Virus record (IMG/VR): IMGVR_UViG_3300035547_000249
Direction: 5' to 3' (one strand)
Source: a virus
Taxonomy: Duplodnaviria; Heunggongvirae; Uroviricota; Caudoviricetes
DNA: 54,252 bases
In this document: piece by piece, positions 865 to 17,257 of the stretch
Numbering within the stretch: the first letter of the stretch is position 1
Layout of the letters: each line of letters begins with the position of its first letter
Position numbers and translations under genes: made by a program
The notes under the pieces: generated by a model
The model's database searches: none
Told to the model about the DNA's origin: nothing
Seen by the model: only the letters and a program-made list of their open reading frames with translations

Positions 865-865
865 C

Positions 866-945: not shown

Positions 946-949
946 ACAT

Positions 950-1018: not shown

Positions 1019-1023
1019 CAAGC

Positions 1024-1101: not shown

Positions 1102-1136
1102 GATTTCTTCTAACGTTAAATGGAGGTGCTTATGAA

Positions 1137-1947: not shown

Positions 1948-1954
1948 CCAATGT

Positions 1955-2366: not shown

Positions 2367-2412
2367 CATTAAAAACCGTGCTCCGGTAGTTCAACTGGCA
2401 GAGCCACCGGCT

Positions 2413-3108
2413 TAATTAGTAAAAACCTAAGTAGTAATTTCGTATGAGGGATTGTGTAGTTCTGTGTGGCAATTAGCACATAATAGAATACATTTATCTG
2501 CCTCAGTATACAATTTATCAAGTGCACGATTAGAACAACTTCTCATGTCTAGTTTAAACTTTTTAGTTTTTTCCTCTACATGATGAAATGTCAGTACTGC
2601 TGAATTCTTACAGTATCCGCATTTCTGACATTTACCACCAAGGTATTTAATTAAGTCTAATCTTATTTTTCTACCTTTTTTGTTCTTTAATTCTTGATAG
2701 TTTTTGGATTTTAATCTTCCAAGCGACTTTTTATTTGTTTTTAATTTACACTTTTTTAGTCTATACATTGTCGCTGTTTGAGAAATTCCTATTTTATTAG
2801 CTATTTCTCTAGTAGATAAACCTTTATCTACTAAAGGTTTTAATTCATCATAAAAATTGTTCATAAAGATTTTCCTATATGGTTTTAACTTGATGGGCCA
2901 TAACTATACCTAAGTATTAAGTTCCTATTTAATATAAGGTTAGTTAATTGTATCTTGTCAAATTCGGGGAAACCTTAACAGGTAATGCTGATGGCAATCC
3001 CGAGCCAAGCCCGTAAGGGAAGGTGTAGAGACTATACGGCAAGGCCGAAAGGTAAGATATAGTCCAGACTACAAACCAGAAATGGGCAGTGAAAACTGTA
3101 GTGGTAAG
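2413..3108 (+). mobile_element. group I intron between U33 and C34, with an HNH gene in the P1 loop
   Basis: same core as the Leu intron; exon ggct pairs with ggcc at 2896-2899; terminal G3108. Confidence 0.9.
2427..2864 (-). CDS. intron-encoded HNH homing endonuclease with N-terminal HTH
   Basis: CQKC..FHH..LLCANCHTELH; antisense to the intron. Confidence 0.85.
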   Translation of the reverse strand: MNNFYDELKPLVDKGLSTREIANKIGISQTATMYRLKKCKLKTNKKSLGRLKSKNYQELKNKKGRKIRLDLIKYLGGKCQKCGYCKNSAVLTFHHVEEKTKKFKLDMRSCSNRALDKLYTEADKCILLCANCHTELHNPSYEITT

Positions 3109-3168
3109 CATAACCGGTCAGTTGTAGGTTCGAGTCCTACCCGGAGTACCAAAGAAAAGAAGGTAAAC

Positions 3169-3432
3169 ATGTATAGAATAAAGGTTCTTTATAGGAAAAA
3201 CCTAAAAATGAGTCCTGGCAAACTTGCAGCACAAACAGGTCATGCTGTGCTTGGTCTTCAACCAATTAAAGACACAAGTATAGTAGTTCTTGAAGCATCG
3301 GACAGAAAATTTTTCGAGAAGCTTGAGGAGTTGAAAGTAAGTGGAAAAGAACACCACACTGTCCGTGATGCTGGAAGAACAGAAGTTGAACCTGGAACAA
3401 TAACATGTGTAGCTTTCTTAGAGTATAAATAA
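3169..3432 (+). CDS. pth2: peptidyl-tRNA hydrolase, Pth2 type
   Basis: MSPGKLAAQTGHA and VRDAGRTEVEPGT motifs; start moved out of the tRNA exon. Confidence 0.85.
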   Translation: MYRIKVLYRKNLKMSPGKLAAQTGHAVLGLQPIKDTSIVVLEASDRKFFEKLEELKVSGKEHHTVRDAGRTEVEPGTITCVAFLEYK

Positions 3433-3544
3433 GTGATGTAAACGAACATAGGGGTCGTTGGATATCGGGAACAAATGGTACCAGACAAAATCCTGATGTA
3501 TCTGTCCTTTTGGTACGATGTAGGGCGTCACTTATATTAATTTA

Positions 3545-3815
3545 GTCCCTGTAGCTCAGCTGAATAGAGCAACGGCCTTCTAGTTAATACTGGGCCTCAT
3601 AGTGGAAACACTTTGAGTGTAAGTAGTCAAATTCGGGGAAACCTTAACAGTTAATGCTGATGGCAATCCCGAGCCAAGCCCGTAAGGGAAGGTGTAGAGA
3701 GCAGACGGCTACCACCTAAGTCAACAGATAAGGTGAAGGGGTGCTCCAAGGAGTAGAGAAATTTACACAAACTTGAAGCCGTAGGTCACAGGTTTGAATC
3801 CTGTCAGGGATACCA
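3545..3815 (+). tRNA. tRNA-Arg(UCU) split by a group I intron
   Basis: exons 3545-3581 and 3776-3815 join to acggc-CTTCTAA-gccgt; encoded CCA. Confidence 0.92.
3582..3775 (+). mobile_element. 194-nt group I intron between U36 and A37
   Basis: shared core; P1 U3581.G3592; P7 GAGCA/TGCTC; terminal G. Confidence 0.9.
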
Positions 3816-3886
3816 GGAGCTATAACCATCGGGGAAGGTGTCAGACTGTCGATCTGATAAGGCGGGTTCGAGTCCCGCTAGCTCCG
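3816..3886 (+). tRNA. tRNA-Asp(GUC)
   Basis: tcaga-CTGTCGA-tctga, G73; abuts the CCA of tRNA-Arg. Confidence 0.9.
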
Positions 3887-3909
3887 CAAATTAAAATCAG
3901 GAGTTTTAC

Positions 3910-4344
3910 ATGTTTAGTATAATCAAAAAGTACATTAGTGAAAGAAAGAAAAAGAAAGAAACTAAATTATATCGTTCAGGATTTGGATGGGCTATGGTAA
4001 GATACTATTGTGAAGGTCTTCCAATAGAAGAAATAGAAAGTTGGGTGCATTTATCTAAACAATTTTGTAATTATAATGAGTTTGATGAGGGCATTGAACA
4101 TGCCATTAAAATCATAAACGATATTAAATTAATTAAACAAAGGTATAATTTTATGAAAGAAAATATATATGATGTAAATTGGTCAAAAAAATATATAATG
4201 ACTGGTTCAATGCGAGTATCTGCCAAATCAAATGACGATGCTAATAGTAAAGTGTCAAAGGTGTTGGGCGATCTAGTTGGTTCTATGCAATTAACTGATG
4301 AAGATTCTGTTGAATCACATATAGTAGAAAAAAATTCTATATAA
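3910..4344 (+). CDS. hypothetical protein
   Basis: 144-aa ORF with AGGAG RBS. Confidence 0.6.
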   Translation: MFSIIKKYISERKKKKETKLYRSGFGWAMVRYYCEGLPIEEIESWVHLSKQFCNYNEFDEGIEHAIKIINDIKLIKQRYNFMKENIYDVNWSKKYIMTGSMRVSAKSNDDANSKVSKVLGDLVGSMQLTDEDSVESHIVEKNSI

Positions 4345-4936
4345 TAACTTGCCCGCATAACTCAGTGTGTAGAGTGCTTGCCTTACAAGCAAGAAGCCAT
4401 TGGTTCAAATCCAGTTGTGGGCACAAAAGTGTGTCCTTTGTAATATACCCATTATCAAATTCCCAGTGATGGTTTTTGCATAGTGCTATTAGGTTATTAA
4501 GTGAGTTTACTTCGATTATTTTTGTATTTTCTGGAAAATCTTTTATTCCAGTTATATGGCAAACATCAAAGTGCAAATCATACCCGCAAATAACACATTT
4601 CTTAGGTTTATCTGATTTAAGATAAAATCTGCGGGCATGATCTCTTATTTGTCTATAATTGTTTGCTGGCTGTTTTTTGTTTCTTGACAATATGTCTTTT
4701 ATTGTGGTAACATATAGCCAATCAGATCTTTTGTCTAAAGACTCTTTAATTCCTGAGTTTCTGCAGGATTTACAGAATTTATTTGATTTTGGTATGGGTG
4801 TATTACATGATTTACATACCCCTCTTGGTTTATTATTAAATTTTGCTGAATGTGATATACTACAAAATTTTCTGCCAATTGGAATTGTAATATTACAATA
4901 TTTACATTTGTTTATACCCATTTTTTTTGTCTCCAT
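4337..4936 (-). CDS. HNH endonuclease with Zn-finger repeats
   Basis: CxxC repeats and DVCH..NLIALCKNHHWEFD; start set at METKK; C-terminus reads antisense through tRNA-Val. Confidence 0.8.
   Translation of the reverse strand: METKKMGINKCKYCNITIPIGRKFCSISHSAKFNNKPRGVCKSCNTPIPKSNKFCKSCRNSGIKESLDKRSDWLYVTTIKDILSRNKKQPANNYRQIRDHARRFYLKSDKPKKCVICGYDLHFDVCHITGIKDFPENTKIIEVNSLNNLIALCKNHHWEFDNGYITKDTLLCPQLDLNQWLLACKASTLHTELCGQVII
4351..4423 (+). tRNA. tRNA-Val(UAC)
   Basis: cttgc-CTTACAA-gcaag, canonical arms. Confidence 0.93.
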
Positions 4937-5002
4937 GAAAAACAATATATTTTTAATATAACTACTAATATTAATATTACAATGGCTTATATAAAAAAAT
5001 AC

Positions 5003-5076
5003 AGACATGTAGCTCAGCCGGTTAGAGCACACGCCTTATAAGCGTGAGGTCAGCAGTTCGATCCTGCTCATGTCTA
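5003..5076 (+). tRNA. tRNA-Ile(UAU)
   Basis: cacgc-CTTATAA-gcgtg, canonical cloverleaf. Confidence 0.92.
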
Positions 5077-5196
5077 CAAGAAGTATCGTTGTCATGAAGT
5101 TTGAAAATCAATAAAAATTAAATTGACTATCATAGTCATGAAGTTTCAATTTTTCAAAAAAATAAATTGACATAATAAAATTGATGGGTATTTTAT

Positions 5197-5379
5197 ATGG
5201 TTAAATACAAGGTAAATGATTTTGTAGAACTGTTGGATGAGAAACCAAACAGTATCAATAAGGAAGCAAGAGTTAATAAGGTAGATGGTGATTATGTTTT
5301 TGTCAGTAATCTTAACATGCCTTTTATTGGAACTCTATGTAACAAAAAATTACATAAAAGTAAAGTAAAGAAAATATGA
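5197..5379 (+). CDS. hypothetical protein
   Basis: 60-aa ORF. Confidence 0.5.
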   Translation: MVKYKVNDFVELLDEKPNSINKEARVNKVDGDYVFVSNLNMPFIGTLCNKKLHKSKVKKI

Positions 5380-5469
5380 TGAGTTCAGGTTGGTTTTTTT
5401 GTTAAAATTTTCATATTGGTTCTCCACAGGTGGTACAGCTATTTTGTGTTGTACCACCATAAGATAAAT

Positions 5470-5544
5470 GCCCGTATAGCTGAGCTGGTTTAGCACAGCC
5501 CTTGTAAGGCTGGGACGGGGGTTCAAATCCCTCTGCGGGCTCCA
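5470..5544 (+). tRNA. tRNA-Thr(UGU)
   Basis: cagcc-CTTGTAA-ggctg; encoded CCA. Confidence 0.93.
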
Positions 5545-5571
5545 TTAAAATAAAATAGGAGATTATTAATT

Positions 5572-6279
5572 TTGAGTGATAAAAAAGTCAGTAAAACCCC
5601 ATGGGTTATGTGGTCTTTCGTTGTTGTAATTGTAATTTACATGGTTATTATGACTATGCAGTTTAAATCTGTTGATAATTTGAGTGATTTGAATGAACAC
5701 TATAAATACACAATGGAAAAATTAAAAACTGAAAATAAAAGACTCGGTGGGTATGAGGAAGAAGCTTTACAGTTAAGAAATGAAAACGATTCCTTATCAG
5801 AAAAGATGAAGTCATTAAAAGCAGTTAAAAGAAAAAATGAAGAACTGTCTGGTTTTATTATGTCTTTACAACCAAAACTGGACATTGAAGTTTCGAATAT
5901 TATCGCAGCAAAGATAATTGAACATGCAAATGCTTTTGGATTTCCTCCTTCTCTAATAGCTTCCTTGATGTATAGGGAGTCTTCATTTAACTTAATAGCT
6001 GTTAGTTCAGCTAAATGTGTTGGTTTGATGCAAGTTAATCCTGCAGCTCATACTGATAAAATAGAAGATATGGGGTTAGAATACCATAATTTATTTTCAA
6101 TTGATGAAAATATCAAACTTGGTTGCATGATACTCTATGAGTATTATAGTTCAGAAAAGGATATTAGAAAAGCATTGACAAGATATGTTGGTGGTTCGCA
6201 TGATAACTATGTTAATGATATTCTTTCCATGTATTCTAATTATCAGATAAACGAGTTCGGAAAAAACAAGGAACAATAA
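5572..6279 (+). CDS. membrane-anchored lytic transglycosylase (SLT domain)
   Basis: N-terminal TM helix, coiled coil, YRESSFN..AVSS..GLMQVN. Confidence 0.85.
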   Translation: MSDKKVSKTPWVMWSFVVVIVIYMVIMTMQFKSVDNLSDLNEHYKYTMEKLKTENKRLGGYEEEALQLRNENDSLSEKMKSLKAVKRKNEELSGFIMSLQPKLDIEVSNIIAAKIIEHANAFGFPPSLIASLMYRESSFNLIAVSSAKCVGLMQVNPAAHTDKIEDMGLEYHNLFSIDENIKLGCMILYEYYSSEKDIRKALTRYVGGSHDNYVNDILSMYSNYQINEFGKNKEQ

Positions 6280-6289
6280 GATAATCACA

Positions 6290-6377
6290 GGGGAATGTTC
6301 CAGGTAGGAGTCTGTAAAACTCTGGTCGCAAAATAATCTTGGTGGTTCGACGAGTGGTTCAATTCCATCATTCCCCA
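6290..6377 (+). tRNA. atypical tRNA-Tyr(GUA) with reduced D-arm
   Basis: ggggaat/attcccc, ggagt-CTGTAAA-actct; only ~10 nt in the D region, ~29-nt variable region. Confidence 0.6.
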
Positions 6378-6423
6378 CAGGAAAACAATGTAAATATATA
6401 TATATAATGAGAAAGATAATAAT

Positions 6424-6627
6424 ATGTATAAACCATATGAAGCAGTAATGGTTAACCCATTCTTCAGTAAAGTAACTTTTGAAGGAGATACCATTTTTAC
6501 ATATCTTTTAGATTACAGTGAAGCTAAATTACAAGCTAATCTTTTTAATAACATTTATGCTTTGGGGGTTATGAAAGCATGTAACTTGGCTGATAACAGA
6601 GAAGAGATACTAAAAATATTGAAATAA
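6424..6627 (+). CDS. hypothetical protein
   Basis: 67-aa ORF. Confidence 0.5.
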   Translation: MYKPYEAVMVNPFFSKVTFEGDTIFTYLLDYSEAKLQANLFNNIYALGVMKACNLADNREEILKILK

Positions 6628-6634
6628 AAAACAT

Positions 6635-6699
6635 AAAAGGACCGAAGATTGTAGTTTATCTATTTGGAGAAAACACTACAATTACTAACTTGTCCTTTT
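6635..6699 (+). ncRNA. novel RNA motif, free-standing copy C
   Basis: aaaaggac/gtcctttt, CGAA opposite ACTAACTT, gattgtagt/actacaatt, GTTTATC and AAAC. Confidence 0.7.
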
Positions 6700-6718
6700 A
6701 AATAATTTTTGAGGTAAT

Positions 6719-6970
6719 ATGAGACTTCCAGAAATAGTTAAGGAAATAAATGAAGTTGAAAAATTAAGGTTAAAGTTAAATAGCTTATTCGAAAAAGAAT
6801 CTAGTGTGTGTCCACATGTATCTTTTAGAGAAAGTTCGTTGTTTGAGTGGCAAACAGAAAAAGTTTGTAACAGAGAGGACAATCTATCTATAGGAACGCA
6901 TTATACGACGTTTTGTAAGCCAGAGTTTTGTCCTATGCAGGTAGAAAATTTGGTTGGTATGGGAAAATAA
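6719..6970 (+). CDS. hypothetical protein
   Basis: 83-aa ORF with GAGG RBS. Confidence 0.55.
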   Translation: MRLPEIVKEINEVEKLRLKLNSLFEKESSVCPHVSFRESSLFEWQTEKVCNREDNLSIGTHYTTFCKPEFCPMQVENLVGMGK

Positions 6971-6996
6971 ACACATACTACTTACAAAATTAATAC

Positions 6997-7025
6997 TTGA
7001 CAAACTATTTAACTAACCTTATTAT
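6997..7025 (+). promoter_or_regulatory. sigma70-like promoter
   Basis: TTGACA-17 bp-TATTAT; predicted +1 falls at the start of motif copy D. Confidence 0.7.
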
Positions 7026-7030
7026 TAATA

Positions 7031-7109
7031 CAGGACCGAAGATATTGGTTTATCATATAACAGTTTACAAAAACAGTCCAAGACAAGACCATTATCATAA
7101 CTAGTCCTG
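7031..7109 (+). ncRNA. novel RNA motif, free-standing copy D
   Basis: caggac/gtcctg, CGAA opposite ATAACTA, gatattggtt/gaccattatc, GTTTATC; 5' leader of tRNA-Gly. Confidence 0.72.
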
Positions 7110-7113
7110 ATAT

Positions 7114-7185
7114 GCGAGCATAACTCAATTGGTAGAGTGCTGGCCTTCCAAGCCAGTGACCTCGGTTCGATTCCGGGTGCTCGCT
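7114..7185 (+). tRNA. tRNA-Gly(UCC)
   Basis: ctggc-CTTCCAA-gccag, U73. Confidence 0.95.
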
Positions 7186-7216
7186 CAAGTAACCATTTAA
7201 TGTGAGGAATACCCAT

Positions 7217-7927
7217 ATGGGCAAAAGAATATATAAGCAAATGATTTGGTGGCCAGTAATGCCTATATGTGATAATCAACTTAAAGATGTTAGAAAAGAA
7301 GATTTACTTTTCGATGGTTTATATCGGTCATGTAATACTTATAGGGGTGGTGGGGGCTATGACGAATTTGGAAACATATATGAAAGACGTTTTGGAATTA
7401 CTCCAGAACCTGTACAGTTTGTAGTTCAGCTTAAAGGATGTCCGTTAAATTGTCCATACTGTTACGTTACGCCTGATGGTATTCATGGCAATTCAGTAAT
7501 GGTAAATACAAATAAACTATTAGATGATTATGAATCAACCGGGCTAAAAGTGTTTCATCTAATGGGCGGAGCACCAGCTATTTATTTAGAACACTGGAAA
7601 AATCTTACAAGAAATTTTAAGAAAGACCAAATATTTCATAGTGATTTTCTGCTGGTGGAAAACTTATATAAACCTTCTTGGTTGATAGACCTTCCAGGCC
7701 TGCATGCGGTATCTTTTAAGGAAAAATACCTTTATAATAAGGATCAACTTGGAATTATGTGGAAGAATTTAAGAACACTTATAGATTGTAAAGTAAACTT
7801 TTATATCACTTTTACAGGAAGAGATGAGTTTAGTCATAAAATATATGATGAGTTTGGTCCCAAAGTATTAGAAGATAGTTTTTTAATTAAGATTCAGAAA
7901 TATAAGGCCCTGTGGACTAATGGTTAG
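7217..7927 (+). CDS. radical SAM-like protein
   Basis: CPLNCPYC (CxxxCxxC) and a GG motif (LMGGAP). Confidence 0.65.
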   Translation: MGKRIYKQMIWWPVMPICDNQLKDVRKEDLLFDGLYRSCNTYRGGGGYDEFGNIYERRFGITPEPVQFVVQLKGCPLNCPYCYVTPDGIHGNSVMVNTNKLLDDYESTGLKVFHLMGGAPAIYLEHWKNLTRNFKKDQIFHSDFLLVENLYKPSWLIDLPGLHAVSFKEKYLYNKDQLGIMWKNLRTLIDCKVNFYITFTGRDEFSHKIYDEFGPKVLEDSFLIKIQKYKALWTNG

Positions 7928-7978
7928 GTCACAACCCTTTCAAGGTTGTAGTTGCCGGTTCAAGCCCGGCCAGGGTCA
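7906..7978 (+). tRNA. tRNA-Glu(UUC)
   Basis: caacc-CTTTCAA-ggttg; overlaps the last codons of the upstream ORF. Confidence 0.93.
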
Positions 7979-8075
7979 CATGGACTTAGTGTTGTATGAC
8001 ACGAGAGATATAATAAACTAACCTCCTTATAAGTGAGAGGGTATTATACCCTTAGAGTTTATTAGGAGGAAGTTT

Positions 8076-8504
8076 ATGAAAAGATCTACGAAGTGGAAGG
8101 GTGATTTGGCAGAACAGATAGTGGTGGTAGAGGCAATGAAAATGGGTATAGATGTTTCTATTCCTGTGGGAGATAGACTAACATATGATCTTATATTTGA
8201 TGTAAATAGTTCTTTGTTAAAGATACAGGTAAAATGTGCATGGTTTGATAAATGTAGTAATAATTATATAACAGACACTAGGATGTGTAAAACCAATAGA
8301 AAACATTATAGGTTTGAGAAATACTCCAATAATGATTTTGATTTCGCTATTATAGTGGTAATGGAAAACAACTCCTTCTACATTATGCCTTCCGATGTGT
8401 TCAATTTATACAAATCCAGTGTAACACTGTCTGAATTTGAAACCAGGCAAAGATCTCCTAGGTCATTGCCATATAAAAATGCTTGGCACTTGCTAGATGT
8501 ATAA
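8076..8504 (+). CDS. free-standing PD-(D/E)XK homing endonuclease (I-Ssp6803I-like)
   Basis: KGDLAE..VSIPVGD..YDLIFD..KIQVK. Confidence 0.8.
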   Translation: MKRSTKWKGDLAEQIVVVEAMKMGIDVSIPVGDRLTYDLIFDVNSSLLKIQVKCAWFDKCSNNYITDTRMCKTNRKHYRFEKYSNNDFDFAIIVVMENNSFYIMPSDVFNLYKSSVTLSEFETRQRSPRSLPYKNAWHLLDV

Positions 8505-8531
8505 CTAATATATAGTTGTAGAAAAAATTAA

Positions 8532-8602
8532 TGCAGCGTAGAGTATTGGTAACTCGGGGGTCTCATAAGCCTCACATATAGGTTCGAATCCTATCGCTGC
8601 AA
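8532..8602 (+). tRNA. tRNA-Met(CAU), initiator-like
   Basis: G-rich anticodon stem, loop CTCATAA, fMet-like D arm (TAGAGT..GGTAACTCG). Confidence 0.85.
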
Positions 8603-8612
8603 AGGTGATAAT

Positions 8613-8747
8613 ATGAAGAAAAATAAAAGAAATAAAACACCATTTGAAAGGTTTAGGAAACCAATTCCAAAACCAGGTTCTTTTTTCAAAGACAGAAGCA
8701 AGTATAATAGGAAAAAGAAACATAAAAAAGACAACGGAGAGGTGTAA
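8613..8747 (+). CDS. small basic protein (44 aa), possibly ArfA-like
   Basis: AGGTGA RBS; ends FKDRSKYNRKKKHK; family assignment is tentative. Confidence 0.45.
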   Translation: MKKNKRNKTPFERFRKPIPKPGSFFKDRSKYNRKKKHKKDNGEV

Positions 8748-8796
8748 CTCATTGGAAGAGAGGCCGGCAATGTGGGTTCGAATCCTACCACCTCTT
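8738..8796 (+). ncRNA. tRNA-like RNA lacking the anticodon arm
   Basis: agaggtg/cacctct, D arm actc-attggaa-gaga, T arm gtggg-TTCGAAT-cctac; only ggccggcaat between D and T arms. Confidence 0.75.
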
Positions 8797-8819
8797 CATT
8801 AAACAATAATACACGACCA

Positions 8820-8941
8820 GGGGTCGTAGCTCAGTTGGTAGAGCAGCCGACAAACAACCTTTTATGATACCTAGTCAAAAAGACCGAAGTACGAGGTTAA
8901 TCATAATCAGTATGTCGTAGGTTCGAATCCTACCGACCCCT
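8820..8941 (+). tRNA. tRNA(CAU) with a 49-nt insertion at 32/33 (motif copy E)
   Basis: removing 8852-8900 gives a canonical 73-nt cloverleaf with loop CTCATAA. Confidence 0.8.
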
Positions 8942-8961
8942 TCAAACAATAAAGGTGACAT

Positions 8962-9339
8962 ATGGACATTGAATTACAGAATAAACTCTTTGATAAATAC
9001 CCAAAACTCTTCAGACAAAGAACACTAAATCCAGAAGACACATGTATGTGTTTTGGAATAGAGTGTGGGGATGGTTGGTTTTGGTTATTATATGAGTTGT
9101 GTGACTTCATACAAACATATGTAGACAATAACAAAGAAGAACAACCAGAAGCTATTCAGGTTAAGGAGAAATTTGGTGGTCTAAGATTTTATACTACCCC
9201 TACAACCGGAAAAATTGATGGTGCCATATGGTTTGCTGAAAGCTTATCTATGAGTATATGTGAGGTGTGTGGCTCAAGGGAAGATGTGACACAGACAAAG
9301 GGATGGGTAAGGTCTTTGTGTAAAAAGTGTATTAAGTAA
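8962..9339 (+). CDS. conserved phage hypothetical protein
   Basis: ECGDGWF..QVKEKFGGLRFY..C-x2-C pattern. Confidence 0.75.
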   Translation: MDIELQNKLFDKYPKLFRQRTLNPEDTCMCFGIECGDGWFWLLYELCDFIQTYVDNNKEEQPEAIQVKEKFGGLRFYTTPTTGKIDGAIWFAESLSMSICEVCGSREDVTQTKGWVRSLCKKCIK

Positions 9340-9343
9340 TTAT

Positions 9344-9430
9344 TCTGGAGTACTCTAACTGGCAAGAGGCTTGGCTGTTAACCAAGTGTATTCCCGAGAG
9401 GGTATGCAGGTTCAAACCCTGCCTCCAGAG
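9344..9430 (+). tRNA. tRNA-Asn(GUU) with a long variable arm
   Basis: cttgg-CTGTTAA-ccaag followed by a 19-nt variable hairpin; G73. Confidence 0.85.
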
Positions 9431-9468
9431 CAAGGCTTTTTTTTATTAATTTATACAAAACAATAAAT

Positions 9469-9978
9469 TCAGGATAGGCTTAGTTTAAATTTTTTTACAT
9501 AATCATCTACTTGCTTTTTAATTAGATATCTATAGTTACTATGCCAATATCTATGATGGGTAGGACAAAGAGGCACAAAGTTATTTTTATTATTATTATT
9601 CTTATTACCATCATAATGATGTGCTTCTACTATTAAGGATTCAGAACAAATAATACATTTTTTCTCATGGTATGCAAAACAAACTTTTCGGGCTCCAAGC
9701 TCTGATATAGAAGAGTCCATTATAGAATAATTTTCTGCAGATTTCCAATTTGGATGATCTTTGCCAGTACGAAAATAAGTATTAGAGCAGCTATAGCTAC
9801 AAGTAGTATTAGATTTGTAGTTCTTAATAGGTTTTTCACAAATAGGACACAATATGATATTGTTAGGATTTAAATAACAATGATTCTCATGTTTAGATAA
9901 ACAAGAAGAACTGGTAATATGTCCACAAAATCGACAACTTTTTTTAACATAATTACCAGTTATAATAAATTTTCCCAT
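9469..9978 (-). CDS. HNH endonuclease
   Basis: CIIC..EAHHYDGN..NFVPLCPTHH. Confidence 0.85.
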   Translation of the reverse strand: MGKFIITGNYVKKSCRFCGHITSSSCLSKHENHCYLNPNNIILCPICEKPIKNYKSNTTCSYSCSNTYFRTGKDHPNWKSAENYSIMDSSISELGARKVCFAYHEKKCIICSESLIVEAHHYDGNKNNNNKNNFVPLCPTHHRYWHSNYRYLIKKQVDDYVKKFKLSLS

Positions 9979-10028
9979 AATTAACTACCTTCCTACTAAT
10001 AACGAGGTTAGTTAATTTGAAAAAATTA

Positions 10029-10104
10029 CTAGCGGTGGCCAAGTCTGGTAAGGCGCCGGTTTTGGATACCGGAGACTTCAGAGGTTCGAATCCTCTCCGC
10101 TAGA
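10029..10104 (+). tRNA. tRNA-Pro(UGG)
   Basis: ccggt-TTTGGAT-accgg. Confidence 0.93.
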
Positions 10105-10127
10105 CAAGTATTAAAAGGAACAATAAA

Positions 10128-11063
10128 ATGGATTTTAAAAAAACTATCATTGACTACCTCGATTCTATAAAAAACGATTTTAATGAGTTAAGAATAGAAA
10201 ACAGGAAAGATAATATTTCCAAAACTCTTGAAAGATTAAAAGATTATAAAGAAAAAATTATCTCAGGAGAGTGGACTATAGATGACTTCTTGGAAGCATT
10301 TTTCGGGCATCTTAAAGTAGAGTCAATTTTAACACTTAATTCTGTATCTTTGTTCGATGAGCCAGCTATTTGGGCTATTAGAAGAAAGGTTAGACATGGT
10401 AATTATGATCGTTGGTCTGACATATACCGTGTATTGAAGGATAAATGTTCTAAGACAGAAGCTATCAAACTTGCTGAGAAAATGGAAGATATATACACTA
10501 GAGAATTTACTGAGGTACCAAGTATTAAAGTCCCCAGCGGAAAATTATTGTTTAGTAATTATTTTCTTAATAATGAAGAAGGCGATAATAAAACCTATGC
10601 ATTTAATGTTCCTGAAGATTTAAAATATGATGACTGGTTCTCACTAAATAGTAAATTTGGTAGACAGAACATGATGACATATCTTGCTAAAGAGTACAAT
10701 ATTGGTTACTGTCAATTAGGAAATAGAACAGTGGGAGTATATAAAGTAGATAATGACCGAATTTATTTAGCCCCCACATCTTATTACGACGATGTAACTG
10801 ATAGAGATATTGAACCTACCAAAAAGTGGGAATATTTAGGAGACATTGATTGCTCCGTTTGGCGAGTAGAATTTATTGATGAAATACTTTTTGATAGTAA
10901 TAATAACATTGATAAGGATTTTTTCGAAGAAGAGGATAATGTAATTGTAGAGGTTACTCCAGGTACTTGGACTGCACATAACTATTATCACTGTAAATCA
11001 GATAAGAGTTTGGTAGAAAAGTTTGGGTATCCTGTATGGATTGAGATAAATAGAATTAAATAA
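10128..11063 (+). CDS. hypothetical protein
   Basis: 311-aa ORF, no recognised motif. Confidence 0.75.
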   Translation: MDFKKTIIDYLDSIKNDFNELRIENRKDNISKTLERLKDYKEKIISGEWTIDDFLEAFFGHLKVESILTLNSVSLFDEPAIWAIRRKVRHGNYDRWSDIYRVLKDKCSKTEAIKLAEKMEDIYTREFTEVPSIKVPSGKLLFSNYFLNNEEGDNKTYAFNVPEDLKYDDWFSLNSKFGRQNMMTYLAKEYNIGYCQLGNRTVGVYKVDNDRIYLAPTSYYDDVTDRDIEPTKKWEYLGDIDCSVWRVEFIDEILFDSNNNIDKDFFEEEDNVIVEVTPGTWTAHNYYHCKSDKSLVEKFGYPVWIEINRIK

Positions 11064-11214
11064 CAGGTACTCATTCAGTACCAAAAGCAGTATGAAACTG
11101 GGCATTTCATATTGACATTTTGTTGCGTTAGTGGGCAACAAAACTCCTTTTGTTAGGTGATTGGTTAGTGTTCTGTTCATGACAAAAAGTGGGCAGAACA
11201 CAAAAGAGAATAAA

Positions 11215-11336
11215 GGGCTCGGTGTCCGTGGGGACTAAACAACTTTCGGTAATAACTAGTTGTGTTTACACAGCCGAGTATTGGAAGTTTATCAAATGCA
11301 AATTGAAAAACTTAGGTTCGACTCCTACCGAGTCCA
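11215..11336 (+). tRNA. tRNA-Cys(GCA)-like gene with a 55-nt insertion (motif copy F)
   Basis: removing 11237-11291 completes the ttcaa/ttgaa stem around ATGCAAA; acceptor gggctcg/cgagtcc; short D-loop; A73 is atypical for Cys. Confidence 0.65.
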
Positions 11337-11351
11337 CAAGAAGGAATTATT

Positions 11352-11639
11352 ATGGATGAAAAATTAAGAACAAAAGTAACTTTCATAAAGGACAAATACC
11401 ACATCAGGTTGCTAGAAGATGATTTGTTAGTAAATGAAATGGCATGCAGGGAAAAGATAGATATAGGGTGGTGTTGTTCTTATATGTTAAGATGGTATGA
11501 TAAACTTGGCGGAAACTCTGTTATGGCTATCAGGTCAAGAGACAGGTGGAGTAATAAGACCTCTAATCCGATGGGAAAGATATGGTATGAAAAAGATCTT
11601 AGACCAAAAGGGTGTATTCAAACTGGATCTACACGGTAA
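11352..11639 (+). CDS. hypothetical protein
   Basis: 95-aa ORF. Confidence 0.6.
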   Translation: MDEKLRTKVTFIKDKYHIRLLEDDLLVNEMACREKIDIGWCCSYMLRWYDKLGGNSVMAIRSRDRWSNKTSNPMGKIWYEKDLRPKGCIQTGSTR

Positions 11640-11829
11640 GAGTCATGCTAATGCGAGAAATAATACAATAAGATTTATCGAAGAGCACTGGGATGATGAC
11701 TCTGAACTGGAGATAATAACTGGACACAGCACCATTATGAAAGGAATAGTTCTAAATGTTCTAGATGAATACAGTCTTCCGTATCAAATAAGTTATATGA
11801 ATACAGGAAAAATAATTGCATGGACATGA
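11587..11829 (+). CDS. stand-alone Smr-domain protein
   Basis: KLDLHG..LEIITGHS; start set at MKKILDQ. Confidence 0.8.
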   Translation: MKKILDQKGVFKLDLHGKSHANARNNTIRFIEEHWDDDSELEIITGHSTIMKGIVLNVLDEYSLPYQISYMNTGKIIAWT

Positions 11830-12035
11830 ATATAATAAAAGTGCCTATTCTGAAAAGATTTGTACATAATGGTAGAAGGTTTGGAGAAACAGATGATGGT
11901 AAGGCTAAATGGTATAGAAGATTTGAAGCTGAAACCTTTAGCCCTGCTCCAGACGGAATCAATGATTGGACATGTGTTAGTGTCTTAGAAGTTATAAAAC
12001 ATTTCATAAAAGGAACCAGAATAAGGTGGACTTAA
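11820..12035 (+). CDS. hypothetical protein
   Basis: 71-aa ORF. Confidence 0.5.
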   Translation: MDMNIIKVPILKRFVHNGRRFGETDDGKAKWYRRFEAETFSPAPDGINDWTCVSVLEVIKHFIKGTRIRWT

Positions 12036-12039
12036 GACA

Positions 12040-12375
12040 ATGAAATATACAATAGAAATAACAGAAAAACAAAAGGAAGTAATTGTAAGGGCTCTGGAGA
12101 CTTATGTAAGATTAATGATAGGTCAAATAGATATAGTTGTAGGTGACAACTTTAAGGAATTATCGTGGGACAATAAAAAAATTATACATGAGACAGCAAG
12201 AAAATTTATCTTTAAAGAATACCCATCTAACGGCGGCCCCGGAATAGGACACCCTGATACAGATGTAAAAGCAAAGATTGCTTATGAGATGGGCGATATT
12301 CTAAAGGGTAAGTTGCCGTTGGAACTATCTGGAGAACCTTTTCCTGTTGTAAATATTACCTCTTTAAAAGCATAA
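12040..12375 (+). CDS. hypothetical protein
   Basis: 111-aa ORF. Confidence 0.65.
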   Translation: MKYTIEITEKQKEVIVRALETYVRLMIGQIDIVVGDNFKELSWDNKKIIHETARKFIFKEYPSNGGPGIGHPDTDVKAKIAYEMGDILKGKLPLELSGEPFPVVNITSLKA

Positions 12376-12382
12376 GAAATAT

Positions 12383-12467
12383 GGAAGGGTCGTCAGTATG
12401 GTGCGACAACGAGTCTTGAAAACTCGGGGGTGTAAAAGCTTTGCAGGTTCGAATCCTGTCCCTTCCG
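12383..12467 (+). tRNA. tRNA-Ser(UGA)
   Basis: loop CTTGAAA, long variable arm, G73. Confidence 0.92.
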
Positions 12468-12500
12468 CAAGTTAATAATTTTAAATAAAGAGGTGTAAAC

Positions 12501-12833
12501 ATGAAAAAGAAAACAATTTGGCAAGAAAGCAAGGCATATCCAAGTCTATATCATCAGATAGTAAAAAGATTTGGACCTTTTAAGTCGTGGCCCAACAGAA
12601 GTTACCCAGCCAACAAAGGCGAGTTTGAGAAATTCTGTAGAAGTTTCGCAGACGTTGTTGGGGCTAAATCTGGCAGAGCAGTTGAAAATCAGATACGATG
12701 GGCTACCACCAAGCAATCAAAAATAGGTAACTCACATATGATGACTTATCTATCCAATAAAATGGCAGCTTTGGCTGCTGGATTTATAGATAGTAAGTAT
12801 GTACCTACTGATATGAAGTGCAATTACAAATAA
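12501..12833 (+). CDS. hypothetical protein
   Basis: 110-aa ORF with GAGGTG RBS. Confidence 0.65.
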   Translation: MKKKTIWQESKAYPSLYHQIVKRFGPFKSWPNRSYPANKGEFEKFCRSFADVVGAKSGRAVENQIRWATTKQSKIGNSHMMTYLSNKMAALAAGFIDSKYVPTDMKCNYK

Positions 12834-12849
12834 CACTAATAAATTGTTA

Positions 12850-13152
12850 TGAATGGTGGGAGGTTGGCTTAGAGGCAGCCAGACGAAAGTCTGCTGGAAA
12901 TTGATATCCAGTACCTATAATGAGTGGAACGACCTACCTACCGCCGGTTGTTTTGCCTAACTGACTTGGCATCGGTCTTAAGGTTAGGGTACCAGTTAAG
13001 TTCGAAGCAAGCCACCTTCGCAGGTGGATGTTATAGACACGGGGTAGCTCCCCTAAATACTGCTGAGGTAGGAGATGCTTATGATAGTGTGATGGCACCC
13101 CAGAAATGGTAAGGCCGGATCTTCCTTTGGCGTAGCAGCACACCACCATTCA
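12850..13152 (+). ncRNA. ~300-nt structured RNA with 23S rRNA H43/H44-like ends
   Basis: closing stem tgaatggtg/caccattca; GGAGGTTGGCTTAGAGGCAGCCA and GCGTAGCAGCACAC; many internal hairpins; GC-rich in AT-rich DNA. Confidence 0.8.
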
Positions 13153-13246
13153 AACAATAACCTATTAATATAGGAGGAGATATGAAGATTTTTTCATATG
13201 TAATGGATATCTTCTAAGTTTTTTAAATAAACTTAGGAGGTATTAA

Positions 13247-13609
13247 ATGAAATACAAAGACAAAGTTCAAAAAAAACATAAGGCAAATCGTCTTGTTGAG
13301 GAAATAGACCCTTGGGGTTATAGGTTATCATACAAGTGGGTACCAGATGGATATCGTTATTATGGTCCAGTATTCAGATTTAGATATGATCCTGTACCTG
13401 GAACTGGTGGTTCTGGTAAAGTACATATAAGAGGGTGCTACAGGACTATTAGAACTACTCAAGAAAGAAGATGGTCACTTGCTCATAAAGATTATGTTAG
13501 GGGCAAGAGAAGTTACAGAATGCTTCCAGATGCTTGGGACGATATTCATCATGCAAGGAGAGAAAAAGGTTGGAAAAGGACAAAGAAAAAGAAACAATGG
13601 ATGAGGTGA
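13247..13609 (+). CDS. conserved basic hypothetical protein
   Basis: RTTQERR..RGKRS..LPDAWDD..KGWK pattern; AGGAGG RBS. Confidence 0.7.
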   Translation: MKYKDKVQKKHKANRLVEEIDPWGYRLSYKWVPDGYRYYGPVFRFRYDPVPGTGGSGKVHIRGCYRTIRTTQERRWSLAHKDYVRGKRSYRMLPDAWDDIHHARREKGWKRTKKKKQWMR

Positions 13610-13694
13610 TATATGACTGACTGGTTTACTTCTGATTGACATTTTTAACTAACCTCCTAATAAATGTAAGTATCAAATTTATTAGGAGAAAAAC

Positions 13695-14411
13695 ATGAAA
13701 ACAAAATATAATTGTACTAATTGTAAAAAAGAATTCAAAAGATATGTCTCTACAGTAAGAAATCCAGAAGCAGTGTTTTGTAGTAGGAAGTGTAAGAGTG
13801 ATTGGCAAGTAGGTAAATTGAGTGGAAAGAATAACCCAAACTATCGTCACGGTAAGTGGGTTGAAGGAAAAAAATCCATATGTGAATGTGGCAATGAAAA
13901 AGACCCTAGATCCTCTAAATGTTATAATTGTAATAGATGCTCTTTTAAAAAGGGGTCTATTAATATAGTTGCTGGCACCAAATCCGTAGTTACAGATGAG
14001 GTAATAAAAAAGATAGTCACCGAAAGTAAATCATTTTTAGAAGTTAGTGATAAACTTAATATATCTAGATATTGGGCAGTTAAAAGAACGAAGCAATTAA
14101 ATTTAGATATTTCACACTTCGTAAAATGTGTTAATAGACCTTATTTACCAGAAGAAGTTTTCAAAGAAGAAAGTAAGGTAAGCAATAGTATTGTCAAGAA
14201 ATTACTTCTAGATGAAAAAGAAGAAAAATGTGAATGTTGTGGTCTAGACAATGTCTGGTTGGAAAAACCACTAACAATAGAACTTCATCATAAGAATGGA
14301 ATTAACAATGATCATAGAAAAGAAAATTTAATCTTACTATGCCCTAACTGCCATTCACAAACTGATACACATAGAGGAAGAAATACTATAACAAAAAGGA
14401 GTCAATTATAA
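13695..14411 (+). CDS. HNH endonuclease
   Basis: CECC..ELHHKNG..NLILLCPNCHSQT. Confidence 0.88.
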   Translation: MKTKYNCTNCKKEFKRYVSTVRNPEAVFCSRKCKSDWQVGKLSGKNNPNYRHGKWVEGKKSICECGNEKDPRSSKCYNCNRCSFKKGSINIVAGTKSVVTDEVIKKIVTESKSFLEVSDKLNISRYWAVKRTKQLNLDISHFVKCVNRPYLPEEVFKEESKVSNSIVKKLLLDEKEEKCECCGLDNVWLEKPLTIELHHKNGINNDHRKENLILLCPNCHSQTDTHRGRNTITKRSQL

Positions 14412-14920
14412 TGGATTGGTTCAGTGCAGATCACCACTTCTTCCACCCGGCCATCATAGGTTATGCTGGAAGGCCGTTTAGAACTGAACAGGAAATGAGA
14501 AATATTATAGTCAAAAGGCACAATGAAGTAGTAGGACCAAAAGATACAACATACTTCATAGGTGATGTTGCAATGATAGGAAGACACGAACTTTCCAAAC
14601 TCAGACCCTTGCTTGAGAAAATGAATGGTACAAAACACCTTATTCTTGGAAATCATGATGAAGGCAGACCATTCACCTATGAGAGGTTTGGATTTACTAC
14701 AGTCCACACCGCTCTACAGTACAATGAAAATATTATTCTAAGGCATGACCCTGCTGCATGTATTGTCATGCCTGAAAAGTTGTGGTTAGTGGGGCACGTT
14801 CATAATGTGTTCCATTATACCACCGAACCAATAAAATGTTTTAACGTCGGTGTTGACGTTAATGATTTCTATCCTGTCAATTTAGAACAGATAGAAAAAA
14901 TTATGAATATTAAGATTTAA
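14411..14920 (+). CDS. calcineurin-like metallophosphoesterase
   Basis: ADHHFFH, GDV, GNHD, GHVH motifs. Confidence 0.88.
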   Translation: MDWFSADHHFFHPAIIGYAGRPFRTEQEMRNIIVKRHNEVVGPKDTTYFIGDVAMIGRHELSKLRPLLEKMNGTKHLILGNHDEGRPFTYERFGFTTVHTALQYNENIILRHDPAACIVMPEKLWLVGHVHNVFHYTTEPIKCFNVGVDVNDFYPVNLEQIEKIMNIKI

Positions 14921-14931
14921 GGAGAGTTGTA

Positions 14932-15243
14932 ATGATTTATGTAAAAGTTGACGGTAAGGAACATGGTATCACTTTTCTTCATGAGAAGGAAGAGACAGAG
15001 GTAGTAAACAAGAACGGTAAAAAGATTAATATGAGCGTACCTTTTAGAACCACATGCGCCATCATTGATCCAGAAAGCAAAGCAACAATTGCTACTGGTG
15101 TTGCAAAGGTTGATTCCAGAGACAATTTCACCTACAACAAAGGTAGAAAGTTTTCTCTTAAGAATGCCCTACTTGCAGCAAATATGCACAGGCACCAAAG
15201 AACTCAGCTCTGGAATCAGTTTTTTGAAAAGGTTAAATATTAA
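14932..15243 (+). CDS. hypothetical protein
   Basis: 103-aa ORF with AGGAG RBS. Confidence 0.65.
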   Translation: MIYVKVDGKEHGITFLHEKEETEVVNKNGKKINMSVPFRTTCAIIDPESKATIATGVAKVDSRDNFTYNKGRKFSLKNALLAANMHRHQRTQLWNQFFEKVKY

Positions 15244-15252
15244 CAAATAACA

Positions 15253-15341
15253 GGAAGGTTGGCCGAGAGGCTTAAGGCACTCGCCTGCTAAGCGAGTGGG
15301 GTCGTTAAACACCCCCGAGAGTTCGAATCCCTCACCTTCCG
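15253..15341 (+). tRNA. tRNA-Ser(GCU)
   Basis: ctcgc-CTGCTAA-gcgag, long variable arm. Confidence 0.95.
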
Positions 15342-15347
15342 CAAGAT

Positions 15348-15420
15348 GGGGTTGTAGCTTAATTGGGAGAGCATCTGCTTTGCAAGCAGAAGGGTATGGG
15401 TTCAATTCCCTTCAACTCCA
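15348..15420 (+). tRNA. tRNA-Ala(UGC)
   Basis: loop TTTGCAA, G3.U70. Confidence 0.93.
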
Positions 15421-15446
15421 CAAGTACATACTGGAGGAAAATCTGA

Positions 15447-15980
15447 ATGGAAAACACTATTTTATTGAACAGCGATTATAATTTCATCAGTATTATAAAC
15501 TGGAAAAGAGCAATTCTTTTGGTTATAAAAGAAAAAGTAGAAGTATTAAAAGGTAGTGATACTGTAATAAAAAATAGTGATGGTTCTATTAAAATTCAAG
15601 TACCAAGAATAGTCAGATTGGTTAGAATGGTTAAGACAATTTATAAATCTAGTGTACCATTCAACAAAAAAAGTGTTATATACAGAGATAAAGGTATTTG
15701 TCAATACTGTGGTACTTCAATAGAAAAAGACATAACCATAGACCATGTTCTGCCAAAATCAAAAGGTGGAATATCTAGCTTTACTAATTGTGTAGTATGC
15801 TGTAAACCATGCAACAACAAAAAAGGCGATAAACTATTAAAAGATAGCGGCATGAAATTGTTAAAAGAACCAAGAACTCCAACAGTAATAGAGTTTATGC
15901 TAATTAAACTTAATAAAGCAAAGAGAGATGAGAGTAAATGGTTCGAAGATTTAGAAAAATACTTTAATCAAGAAGGATAA
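15447..15980 (+). CDS. HNH endonuclease (McrA-like)
   Basis: LLNSDY..WKRAI; CQYC..TIDHVLPKSKGG..NCVVCCKPCNNKK. Confidence 0.88.
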   Translation: MENTILLNSDYNFISIINWKRAILLVIKEKVEVLKGSDTVIKNSDGSIKIQVPRIVRLVRMVKTIYKSSVPFNKKSVIYRDKGICQYCGTSIEKDITIDHVLPKSKGGISSFTNCVVCCKPCNNKKGDKLLKDSGMKLLKEPRTPTVIEFMLIKLNKAKRDESKWFEDLEKYFNQEG

Positions 15981-15985
15981 ATATC

Positions 15986-16246
15986 ATGGAAAAAACTGAA
16001 GCTGTATGCGATATACATGATGTTTTGGATACCTATAATAATATAGTAGAAACATGTGACAAACTTCCAGAATGTTTGATAGTAAATAGTAAAGATGAGA
16101 CAGTATTGTCTAGTGTATTAGGTGATCAGTACATCAAAAGCTCTGCTAACGATATGTATTCAAATAATATACTTGGTTACTTTAGAGATATTCAGGTCAA
16201 ATCTGGTATATTGTCTAGTTGTAAAGCCAAGTTTATGTTAAATTAG
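15986..16246 (+). CDS. hypothetical protein
   Basis: 86-aa ORF. Confidence 0.55.
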   Translation: MEKTEAVCDIHDVLDTYNNIVETCDKLPECLIVNSKDETVLSSVLGDQYIKSSANDMYSNNILGYFRDIQVKSGILSSCKAKFMLN

Positions 16247-16407
16247 TATGTTTAAGATTTCTGATAAGATAAAAGATAAGTTTGCAAATACAGTTATAAC
16301 ATCTTTTTCTTTTACGGCAGCAGCCACTTTATTGGTAAAAATAGGATGTAATCCAAATCTATTATCTGCTGTTTGTATATCAGGATTAACTTTAATAATT
16401 ATTATAT

Positions 16408-16482
16408 GGTGGCGGTAACTCAGTGGTAGAGAGCTGGATTGTGGCTCCAGCAGCACGGGTTCGAATCCCGTCCGCCACCCCA
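16408..16482 (+). tRNA. tRNA-His(GUG)
   Basis: G-1, C73, loop TTGTGGC, encoded CCA. Confidence 0.95.
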
Positions 16483-16691
16483 AGGATCTATCATGAACTC
16501 TGGCCATTTAATTAAATTAAGACCATGTGTATGAGTAGGGATAGCCAAACCAGATTTCATGATGATGTAGATAGTAGTGTATTCATTGGTTCGGAGGACC
16601 GAAATCATTAGATATTCCTCCGTGTGAGGCTGTTAAACACAGAATAAAACGATCAAAAAAATTTCATTATATGGGTATACTACTATCTCAT

Positions 16692-16762
16692 AGGGATGTT
16701 AGCTAACGGAAAGCTCCCAGCCTTTGACGCTGGTCATCCAGGTTCGAGTCCTGGCATCCCTG
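16692..16762 (+). tRNA. tRNA-Gln(UUG)
   Basis: ccagc-CTTTGAC-gctgg, G73. Confidence 0.92.
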
Positions 16763-16786
16763 CAAGAAAAATATAAGGAGGTGAAT

Positions 16787-17257
16787 ATGTCAAACAGTAT
16801 GAGATTGCTGGAAAAGGCGATAGTAATAGCAACTAATGCTCATATGGGCCAGTTTGATAGGGCTGGCGCACCATATATTCTTCACCCTCTCAGAGTTATG
16901 ATGAGGATGTCTACTATAGAAAGTAAGATAGTAGCAGTATGTCATGACCTAATTGAAGATACATATATAACACTAAAAGACCTCATGAATGAAGAATTTA
17001 CAGATGACATAATATTCTCTATTGATTGTATGACTAAGTGCAAAGGTGAGGAATACAACTCCTACCTTGATCGTGTTATAAGTGACAAGATGGCATCGGA
17101 ATGTAAGCTTGAAGATATGAGAGACAACTCAAATATATACAGGCTTAATAAAATAAAAGATAAGCACCTAAAAATGATAGAAAAATATCATAAAGGAGCA
17201 TTAAGAATACTTGAAGCTTGGCCTGAGTTTAATATTAGGTTTAGGCTTATAGACTGA
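16787..17257 (+). CDS. HD-domain hydrolase, RelA/SpoT (small alarmone hydrolase) type
   Basis: AI..A..AH.GQ.DRAGAPYILHPLRV, HDLIED, KLEDM.DN. Confidence 0.8.
   Translation: MSNSMRLLEKAIVIATNAHMGQFDRAGAPYILHPLRVMMRMSTIESKIVAVCHDLIEDTYITLKDLMNEEFTDDIIFSIDCMTKCKGEEYNSYLDRVISDKMASECKLEDMRDNSNIYRLNKIKDKHLKMIEKYHKGALRILEAWPEFNIRFRLID

Follow-up and report, generated by a model that had tools for sequence, protein, structure and literature searches.

A phage-borne RNA family that structurally copies the uL11-binding GTPase-associated centre of 23S rRNA

Does an intergenic stretch of a large phage genome encode an RNA copy of a functional centre of the ribosome? The question was raised by positions 12850-13152 of the window (the whole stretch of DNA analysed here, 54 252 nucleotides), where the original prediction had placed an RNA mimicking the uL11-binding centre of 23S rRNA. 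The window is a fragment of an uncultured large phage (IMG/VR record IMGVR_UViG_3300035547_000249, 79 kb, estimated to be 29% complete). The element is intergenic: the preceding ORF ends at 12833 and the next begins at 13247. Its GC content is 0.45-0.48, compared with approximately 0.35 in the flanks. A coding reading was rejected because the internal ORFs (35, 62 and 71 amino acids) are confined to the variable insert.

In 23S rRNA the GTPase-associated centre (E. coli 1051-1108, the numbering used throughout; the 58-nt domain that binds uL11 and thiostrepton) comprises the end of H42, H43 and H44. The window was compared with the 23S rRNA of Salmonella LT2 (NR_076079.2). The near-identity of the 5' end to H43 that had been predicted was borne out, with 21 of 23 bases identical over 1055-1077; U1058 and A1070 are both replaced by G. 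Positions 12859-12881 read GGGAGGTTGGCTTAGAGGCAGCCA, in which U1060 is 12864, A1067 is 12871 and G1071-C1072 are 12875-12876. The element is enclosed by a closing stem, as predicted, although this stem has ten perfect pairs rather than nine.

The 3' end had been read as the H43 3' strand followed by the H44 loop with A1095. The loop is present: positions 13130-13143 read GCGTAGCAGCACAC and correspond to the H44 hairpin and its 3' strand (1091-1104). The H43 strand is not, since the TCCTTTG assigned to it consists of the 3' strand of the insertion-closing helix (13122-13125) and the UUUG linker. The rRNA segment 1083-1090, described as shortened, belongs to a complete copy of 1079-1090 in which the lower 3' strand of H43 occupies 12914-12916, the tertiary pair 1082:1086 is A12917:U12921, and G1087, A1088 and U1090 are 12922, 12923 and 12925, respectively. 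A1101 pairs with U12925 and C1102 with G12922. Instead of the single separating stretch of about 230 nt that had been proposed, there are two insertions, of 32 and 200 nt. The shorter lies between A1077 and C1079, replacing U1078, and is made up of the hairpins GAC-GAAA-GUC (12882-12891) and CUGGA...UCCAG (12894-12911). The longer is closed by a 4-bp helix (12926-12929/13122-13125). The features are collected in Table 1; R1 is the covariance model described below.

Table 1 Features of the RNA element in the window, with E. coli 23S rRNA numbering
Feature	Position	Strand	Basis or remark
Whole RNA element, 303 nt	12850-13152	+	Stand-alone phage mimic of the 23S GTPase-associated centre; full-length R1 match
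Closing stem, 5' strand, 10 bp	12850-12859	+	In place of the end of H42; partner 13143-13152; perfect complementarity
H43 5' strand, A1067 loop and upper 3' strand (1057-1077)	12861-12881	+	Alignment with rRNA
Extra insertion in the H43 internal loop, 32 nt	12882-12913	+	Set by cmsearch as an insert between model positions
CCUAUAAUGAGU, complete rRNA 1079-1090	12914-12925	+	Aligned by R1
Main insertion inside H44, between U1090 and G1091, 200 nt	12926-13125	+	Interior lineage-specific
'Type A' module of the main insertion	13094-13116	+	GGCACC, 3-bp stem with GAAA tetraloop, UAAGGCC
UUUG linker, family signature not in rRNA	13126-13129	+	Family conservation
H44 hairpin GC-GUAGCA-GC (1091-1100), then A1101, C1102, A1103	13130-13142	+	A1095 = 13134
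Closing stem, 3' strand	13143-13152	+	Partner 12850-12859

A BLAST search with the region found the same architecture, unannotated, beside a tRNA-Met gene in Aeromonas phage 4_4572. Pattern scans of IMG/VR gave at least 119 loci with the H43 core and at least 120 with the 3' signature. Among the H43-core loci listed, only four lack the order of ...AAAGAGU, an insertion and then GCGUAnnAGCAC. These are true 23S, in which the H44 loop is reached 32-33 nt downstream and 1101 is U, and they were discarded. Of the 82 loci that the 3'-signature scan added, about 75 were positive with the covariance model. The two scans combined yielded at least 157 distinct elements in 130 insert clusters, and core lengths across the family range from 89 to 382 nt.

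The covariance model R1 (178 positions) was built from alignment A1, which contains 46 other, shorter members and whose 24-pair structure combines the ribosomal domain with the closing stem and insert helix. R1 matched the window at 12847-13155 over model positions 1-178 of 178 with 76.7 bits (E = 2e-24; 2e-23 in a search of 776 kb), which is far beyond chance. The family signature is present in the window in full order, as ...AANGAGU (12919-12925), the main insert, UUUG and GCGUAnnAGCAC (13130-13141). The RNA of the window is a member of a large and conserved phage-borne RNA family.

R1 confirmed copies in the cultured phages Cronobacter GAP32, Xanthomonas XacN1, Aeromonas 4_4572 and Pseudomonas pf16 at 89-101 bits, all of them unannotated, and each of the three complete genomes searched carries one copy. 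The unannotated matches listed from a BLAST search with the H43 core were in Cronobacter GAP32, Pectobacterium CBB, Serratia BF, the Erwinia pEa_SNUABM phages, Kaldavass, Yersinia fHe-Yen9-03 and fHe-Yen9-04, Xanthomonas XacN1, XbC2 and XaC1, and Pseudomonas pf16, Astolliot, Milchi and UNO-G1W1, with a divergent copy in a Vibrio phage. This divergent member (2.275.O._10N.286.54.E11, locus L334, about 1496-1732) is matched by R1 in its 5' part only, at 38 bits; its H43 is GUGGGCUUAGGAGCAGCCA and its H44 loop is GCUUAAUCGC in place of GCGUAAUAGC.

In bacterial genome contigs (596 Gb) an H43 motif was found upstream of the 3' signature in ten of the 120 matches listed. We estimate that roughly a thousand 3'-signature matches would be expected by chance in 596 Gb, with which the other 110 listed are in keeping. 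Because so few bacterial matches have the H43 motif, the family is essentially viral, the bacterial cases being some prophages or mis-binned phage contigs. A seeming Gram-positive member in Paenibacillus phage Pd_22F (MZ092003.1, locus L333, 1400-1660) was rejected as true 23S, with continuous rRNA on both sides; this stretch, in an unannotated gap of the record, is host DNA or an assembly artefact and not a mimic.

The fold is under selection. In A1, 92.3% of the cells are paired and the covariation score is 0.565, compared with 0.141 for shuffled alignments and 0.09-0.18 for slid partners. A second alignment, A3, contains 74 distinct sequences obtained mainly through the 3' motif and partly overlapping A1; being model-fitted it leans towards the structure, and it gave 93.4% paired and a score of 0.516 versus 0.129. 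Covariation was seen at eight of the eight modelled pairs of the closing stem in A1 and at seven of the eight in A3, as well as at all four pairs of the insertion-closing helix in the family. The tertiary pair 1082:1086 also covaries in A3 (U-A in 38, C-G in 16 and A-U in nine). RNAalifold, applied to 20 members, independently found the closing stem, H43, the insert helix and H44.

The phage RNA shares with the ribosomal centre the H43 and H44 sequences with the A1067 and A1095 loops, the U1060-A1088 pair, G1071/C1072, the pairs G1091-C1100 and C1092-G1099, the tertiary pair 1082:1086 and a variable position 1061. It differs in being a free-standing gene of 303 nt where a short free-sequence stem stands in for H42, and in having A at 1101 (U in rRNA), the UUUG linker and the 200-nt insertion between 1090 and 1091. 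The window also has the second insertion at 1077/1078, and the family is relaxed at A1067 and at 1096/1097. The H44 loop of the window lies 267 nt past the H43 motif, whereas in true 23S the distance from the start of the motif is 32-33 nt. Outside the closing stem no rRNA sequence was found; the flanks of the element in the window are phage ORFs. R1, although made solely from phage copies, also scores true 23S rRNA, at 49-55 bits (Salmonella 53.3; loci L114 and L119). This cross-match is direct evidence that one architecture is common to the phage family and the ribosomal domain. The proposed mimicry therefore holds as a matter of structure, the helices, the 1082:1086 pair and the U1060-A1088 pair being kept throughout the family. 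The RNA of the window is a structural copy of the uL11-binding GTPase-associated centre in H43, H44 and the tertiary contacts: its ends, joined by the 10-bp stem, fold into the domain, and the two insertions lie at permissive points.

Base conservation was assessed with less ascertainment bias by reading H43 in copies found through the 3' motif only and H44 in copies found through the 5' motif only. U1060 is U in 55 of 55 copies of the sample not selected on H43, and A1088 is A in 46 of 46 in A1. Invariant or nearly so are U1060, U1066, A1069, G1071, C1072, G1091-C1100, C1092-G1099, G1093, U1094 and A1098. At the loop tips, A1067 is relaxed (84% A, 13% G), A1095 is 96% conserved and 1096/1097 are free. 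These bases are almost invariant in bacterial rRNA because they are touched by factors and thiopeptides. U1061 is hypervariable in the family; it is also where the rRNA domain varies naturally and where the stabilizing U1061A change lies. The UUUG linker is 93-99% conserved in the 5'-anchored sample (n = 89) and nearly invariant in A1, and A at 1101 separates the family from true 23S. Only the core of the GTPase-associated centre and the UUUG linker are conserved family-wide; the inserts have no common sequence. L11 hydrogen-bonds to the U1060-A1088 pair (PMC2175356), and its recognition tolerates sequence change, since bacterial L11 also assembles onto the yeast site (PMC2175356). A strict fold and a strict uL11-read pair, combined with looser factor-contact bases, are more in keeping with selection to bind uL11 than with selection to bind factors.

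All members of the set have an insert between U1090 and G1091, of 45-369 nt. The insertion in the H43 internal loop (1077/1078, 20-90 nt) occurs in about 17 of the 157 distinct members (approximately 11%), the window included. A BLAST comparison of the insert with all fetched copies found only the 23-nt type A module to be shared. This module is common to 36 distinct members, among them those of Aeromonas 4_4572 and Pseudomonas pf16; its flanks CACC and UAAGG are conserved, and concerted changes are visible by eye in the flanking pair and in the third pair of the stem. The structure of the remaining interior of the 200-nt insert comes from single-sequence folding alone. In the published crystal structures of L11-RNA complexes, A1088 reportedly enters H43 from the major-groove side, with L11 bound at the minor groove; the main insert should therefore point away from uL11 where it exits the domain. 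The 32-nt insertion of the window lies opposite U1060/U1061, near the uL11 site, and could interfere with binding.

The window contains 17 tRNA genes, all on the + strand, at 782-16763, around the element; the 12 best Rfam tRNA matches are likewise all on the + strand, the strand of the element. tRNA genes were found at 76 of 108 loci, the nearest always being on the same strand as the element. It lies within 200 nt at 46 loci, and many are 11-25 nt from the core, i.e. flush with the closing stem. In pf16 the element is located between tRNA-Asn and tRNA-Pro and ends 8 nt before tRNA-Pro. In the window it is located between small ORFs, with the nearest tRNA 395 nt upstream. Given these same-strand tRNA genes, near or flush, and the arrangement in pf16, the family RNA probably behaves as a member of the tRNA operon and is probably released by tRNA processing. 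No promoter or terminator of its own was detected above background at the window element.

When the 3570 ORFs lying up to 4 kb from 182 copies were clustered, no partner gene proved to be conserved (best cluster, 12 of 182 loci). A search for uL11 genes in the window's record and the complete GAP32, XacN1 and 4_4572 genomes found none; any protein partner would therefore be made by the host. The only recurrent neighbour that includes the window is a weakly matching calcineurin-like phosphoesterase (14411-14920, +), with relatives downstream of the RNA at seven loci, which may reflect relatedness of the phages rather than function.

Several further features of the region were recorded. Homing-type nucleases occur near the RNA: an HNH endonuclease at 15447-15980 (+; E = 2e-14) and, at 13695-14411 (+), a Cys-rich HNH-like motif recognized by eye, with no Pfam match. 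A PTH2 peptidyl-tRNA hydrolase was confirmed at 3082-3432 (+; E = 9e-14), and a Smr domain at 11497-11829 (+) scored below the Pfam cutoff (22.2 versus 25.7 bits). The ORF at 16724-17257 (+), which covers the site of a suspected RelA/SpoT-type alarmone hydrolase (16787), had no Pfam match at E = 0.01. The tRNA array of the window has no Arg, Cys, Phe or Tyr tRNA. Three Rfam group I intron matches lie in the tRNA island (1979-2284, 2910-3089 and 3569-3768; 50.3-51.2 bits, gathering score 50); when they were spliced out in pursuit of intron-split tRNAs, the ARAGORN calls were inconsistent. An Rfam tRNA match of 122 nt (8820-8941, 51.8 bits), absent from the ARAGORN results, may have a long insertion or an unusual arm. 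Intein signatures (Hint/intein-splicing and LAGLIDADG domains) were found in the ribonucleotide reductase large subunit (51496-54198, -) and in RNase HII (47822-49534, -). The phage also encodes a protein with several PAS domains (38282-40063, -) and a ClpB-like AAA+ ATPase (22416-24293, -).

As to what such an RNA might do, the most favoured reading, with a little less than an even chance, is that the family RNA is a free-standing decoy that binds host uL11 off the ribosome. The element would be co-transcribed with the phage tRNA island as a stable non-coding RNA and would work off the ribosome as a molecular mimic of the GTPase-associated centre. The likeliest partner would be host uL11, the C-terminal domain of which recognizes exactly such a fold. 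Produced in quantity alongside the phage tRNAs, the RNA would sequester uL11 that is free or exchangeable. Ribosomes without uL11 cannot activate RelA, and in this way the stringent response would be blunted by a phage that floods its host with tRNAs. The RelA step we infer purely. It is unlikely in its full form, in which many unrelated virulent tRNA-array phages would co-express a copy of the uL11 site, draw uL11 off ribosomes and switch off the RelA-dependent alarmone synthesis that uncharged phage tRNAs would otherwise trigger. If true, this would make it an anti-stringent device built of RNA and the first mimic of an rRNA functional centre in a virus. Besides the setting of the window element among small ORFs, the failure to detect a promoter or terminator of its own and its insertion near the uL11 site, two points weigh against a uL11 decoy. 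The degree to which A1067 and A1095 are kept goes beyond what binding of the C-terminal domain alone should need, and suggests a partner in contact with the loop tips. In addition, uL11 is bound tightly to tens of thousands of ribosomes, so that stripping them would need high RNA levels and exchange of the protein.

A partner at the loop tips could be an enzyme. The RNA might serve as a decoy substrate or competitive inhibitor for an ADP-ribosyltransferase, methyltransferase, nuclease or other toxin that attacks the GTPase-associated centre, so that the ribosomes of the infected host would be spared; a comparable action against anticodon nucleases is ascribed to phage tRNAs. The tRNA islands in which the element occurs are regarded as counter-defence regions, and its loop tips are mostly kept. 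Toxins aimed at this centre do exist: Tre23 of Photorhabdus ADP-ribosylates H44 within 1095-1098 and blocks the GTPase of EF-G (PMC8661411). Tre23 is, however, a weapon of type VI secretion rather than a known anti-phage system, and 1096 and 1097, within its target window, vary freely in the family. We know of no anti-phage effector aimed at H43/H44, and a decoy of this kind would have to outcompete tens of thousands of ribosomes. We regard it as distinctly unlikely.

There is also a small chance that the ribosomal fold is a folding or protection module, perhaps capped by uL11, an abundant protein, and that the real activity (a binding site, a ribozyme or an oligomerization surface) resides in the variable insertion. 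The inserts are long and diverse, as the number of clusters among the distinct copies illustrates, and the module with the tetraloop recurs among them, in the window too. Large ornate RNAs of phage tRNA arrays such as GOLLD and ROOL, moreover, form cages (PMC12286853). Such an activity is at odds with the confinement of family-wide conservation to the core and the linker, and with the existence of very short inserts (down to 45 nt); an arbitrary stable scaffold, furthermore, would have no need of the exact tertiary contacts of rRNA.

It is improbable that the RNA acts on translational GTPases, RelA or the uL10-bL12 stalk, as their trap or platform, instead of on uL11. The loops that meet EF-G, with A1067 and A1095, are mostly kept, and EF-G was reportedly found to bind an isolated thiostrepton-domain oligonucleotide (Munishkin and Wool in 1997). 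The affinity of factors for isolated RNA of this centre is weak, however. A1067 is G in more than a tenth of the unbiased sample (the 13% given above), 1096/1097 are free, and the H42 region that binds uL10 is replaced by the sequence-free stem.

Control of the downstream ORF (13247-13609) by a cis-regulatory leader sensing uL11 is highly improbable. Ribosomal-protein leaders that mimic rRNA sites are known (PMC10931766), and the ORF begins 95 nt downstream of the element. At many loci, however, the element stands between two tRNA genes with no ORF to regulate, and in 16 other phages that encode a relative of the downstream protein, no such RNA lies within 2.5 kb of it. There is no conserved neighbour gene, no ribosomal-protein gene nearby and no uL11 gene in the record. 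A non-functional remnant (a captured rRNA fragment, an intron-bearing piece of rRNA or assembly contamination) can be practically dismissed, even though true 23S does occur in some 'phage' records (e.g. Pd_22F and loci L044, L052, L114 and L119), because the strong compensatory changes already contradict it, rRNA beyond the closing stem and an LSU match in Rfam are both missing, A1101, the UUUG linker and the free-sequence stem are absent from rRNA, the 1058:1080 pair is not the one seen in the hosts of the cultured phages, and the element shares its strand with an ordered tRNA island.

A comparison with Rfam 15, proposed earlier as the check for an already known family such as GOLLD or LSU rRNA, gave no match of any family to the element, and none of an LSU rRNA model, either over the whole window at gathering scores or over 12400-13600 at E values up to 10. 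The suggested kinship with GOLLD-type RNAs was not sustained: neither GOLLD, ROOL nor any other Rfam model matched up to E = 10, and only the setting in a tRNA array is alike. Searches of the full-text literature found no description of a phage RNA family mimicking the GTPase-associated centre; mentions of L11 in GOLLD and ROOL papers proved to be loop names and not the protein. In a 2024 review of what ribosomal proteins do outside the ribosome, no role is listed for uL11 and no mimic of this kind, nor is a uL11 leader mimic mentioned (PMC10931766). The autoregulatory leaders of uL1, uL10-bL12 and others are similar in that an extraribosomal RNA resembles the site in rRNA to which a ribosomal protein binds (PMC10931766). 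They differ as cis-acting 5' leaders of the cell's own ribosomal-protein operons that are only loosely rRNA-like, whereas the phage RNA is a stand-alone gene among tRNAs, has no regulated ORF and is a near base-for-base copy of rRNA.

GOLLD and ROOL RNAs are often found near tRNA genes. Like the present family they are structured phage non-coding RNAs of unknown function (PMC12286853). They differ in having no rRNA mimicry, in being several-fold larger and in having conserved parts that build RNA-only cages. Decoy RNAs are established elsewhere: 6S RNA mimics an open promoter and phage pseudo-ToxI mimics an antitoxin. The proposed logic is the same, an abundant RNA imitating a nucleic acid target and occupying a protein, but the targets and folds differ and in the present case we infer the decoy role. 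The species 1 and 2 RNAs of T4 are stable non-tRNA RNAs in a phage tRNA operon and are presumably freed by tRNA processing. To our knowledge they show no rRNA mimicry, and no T4 record was among the H43-core matches listed in the phage collection. Known objects of viral mimicry include tRNAs, promoters and antitoxin RNAs; our literature search found no virus described as copying a functional centre of rRNA.

The revised anatomy of the window element, the second permissive insertion site, the less biased conservation, the cross-match of R1 to 23S, the type A module and the list of cultured phages are new here. The 3' signature and R1 let annotators label several hundred 'empty' intergenic gaps in phage genomes. 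The binding of uL11 to the 58-nt rRNA domain is a classic, well controlled assay, and the cultured carriers (Pseudomonas putida pf16, GAP32, XacN1 and 4_4572) make the family directly testable. The members are also natural variants of a model RNA fold and show which positions are tolerant and where large insertions are permitted. The family is large, spans unrelated phage lineages and is old, since its sequence does not track host rRNA; being large, old and widespread, it points to a general and hitherto unrecognized way in which phages handle the translation apparatus of their hosts.
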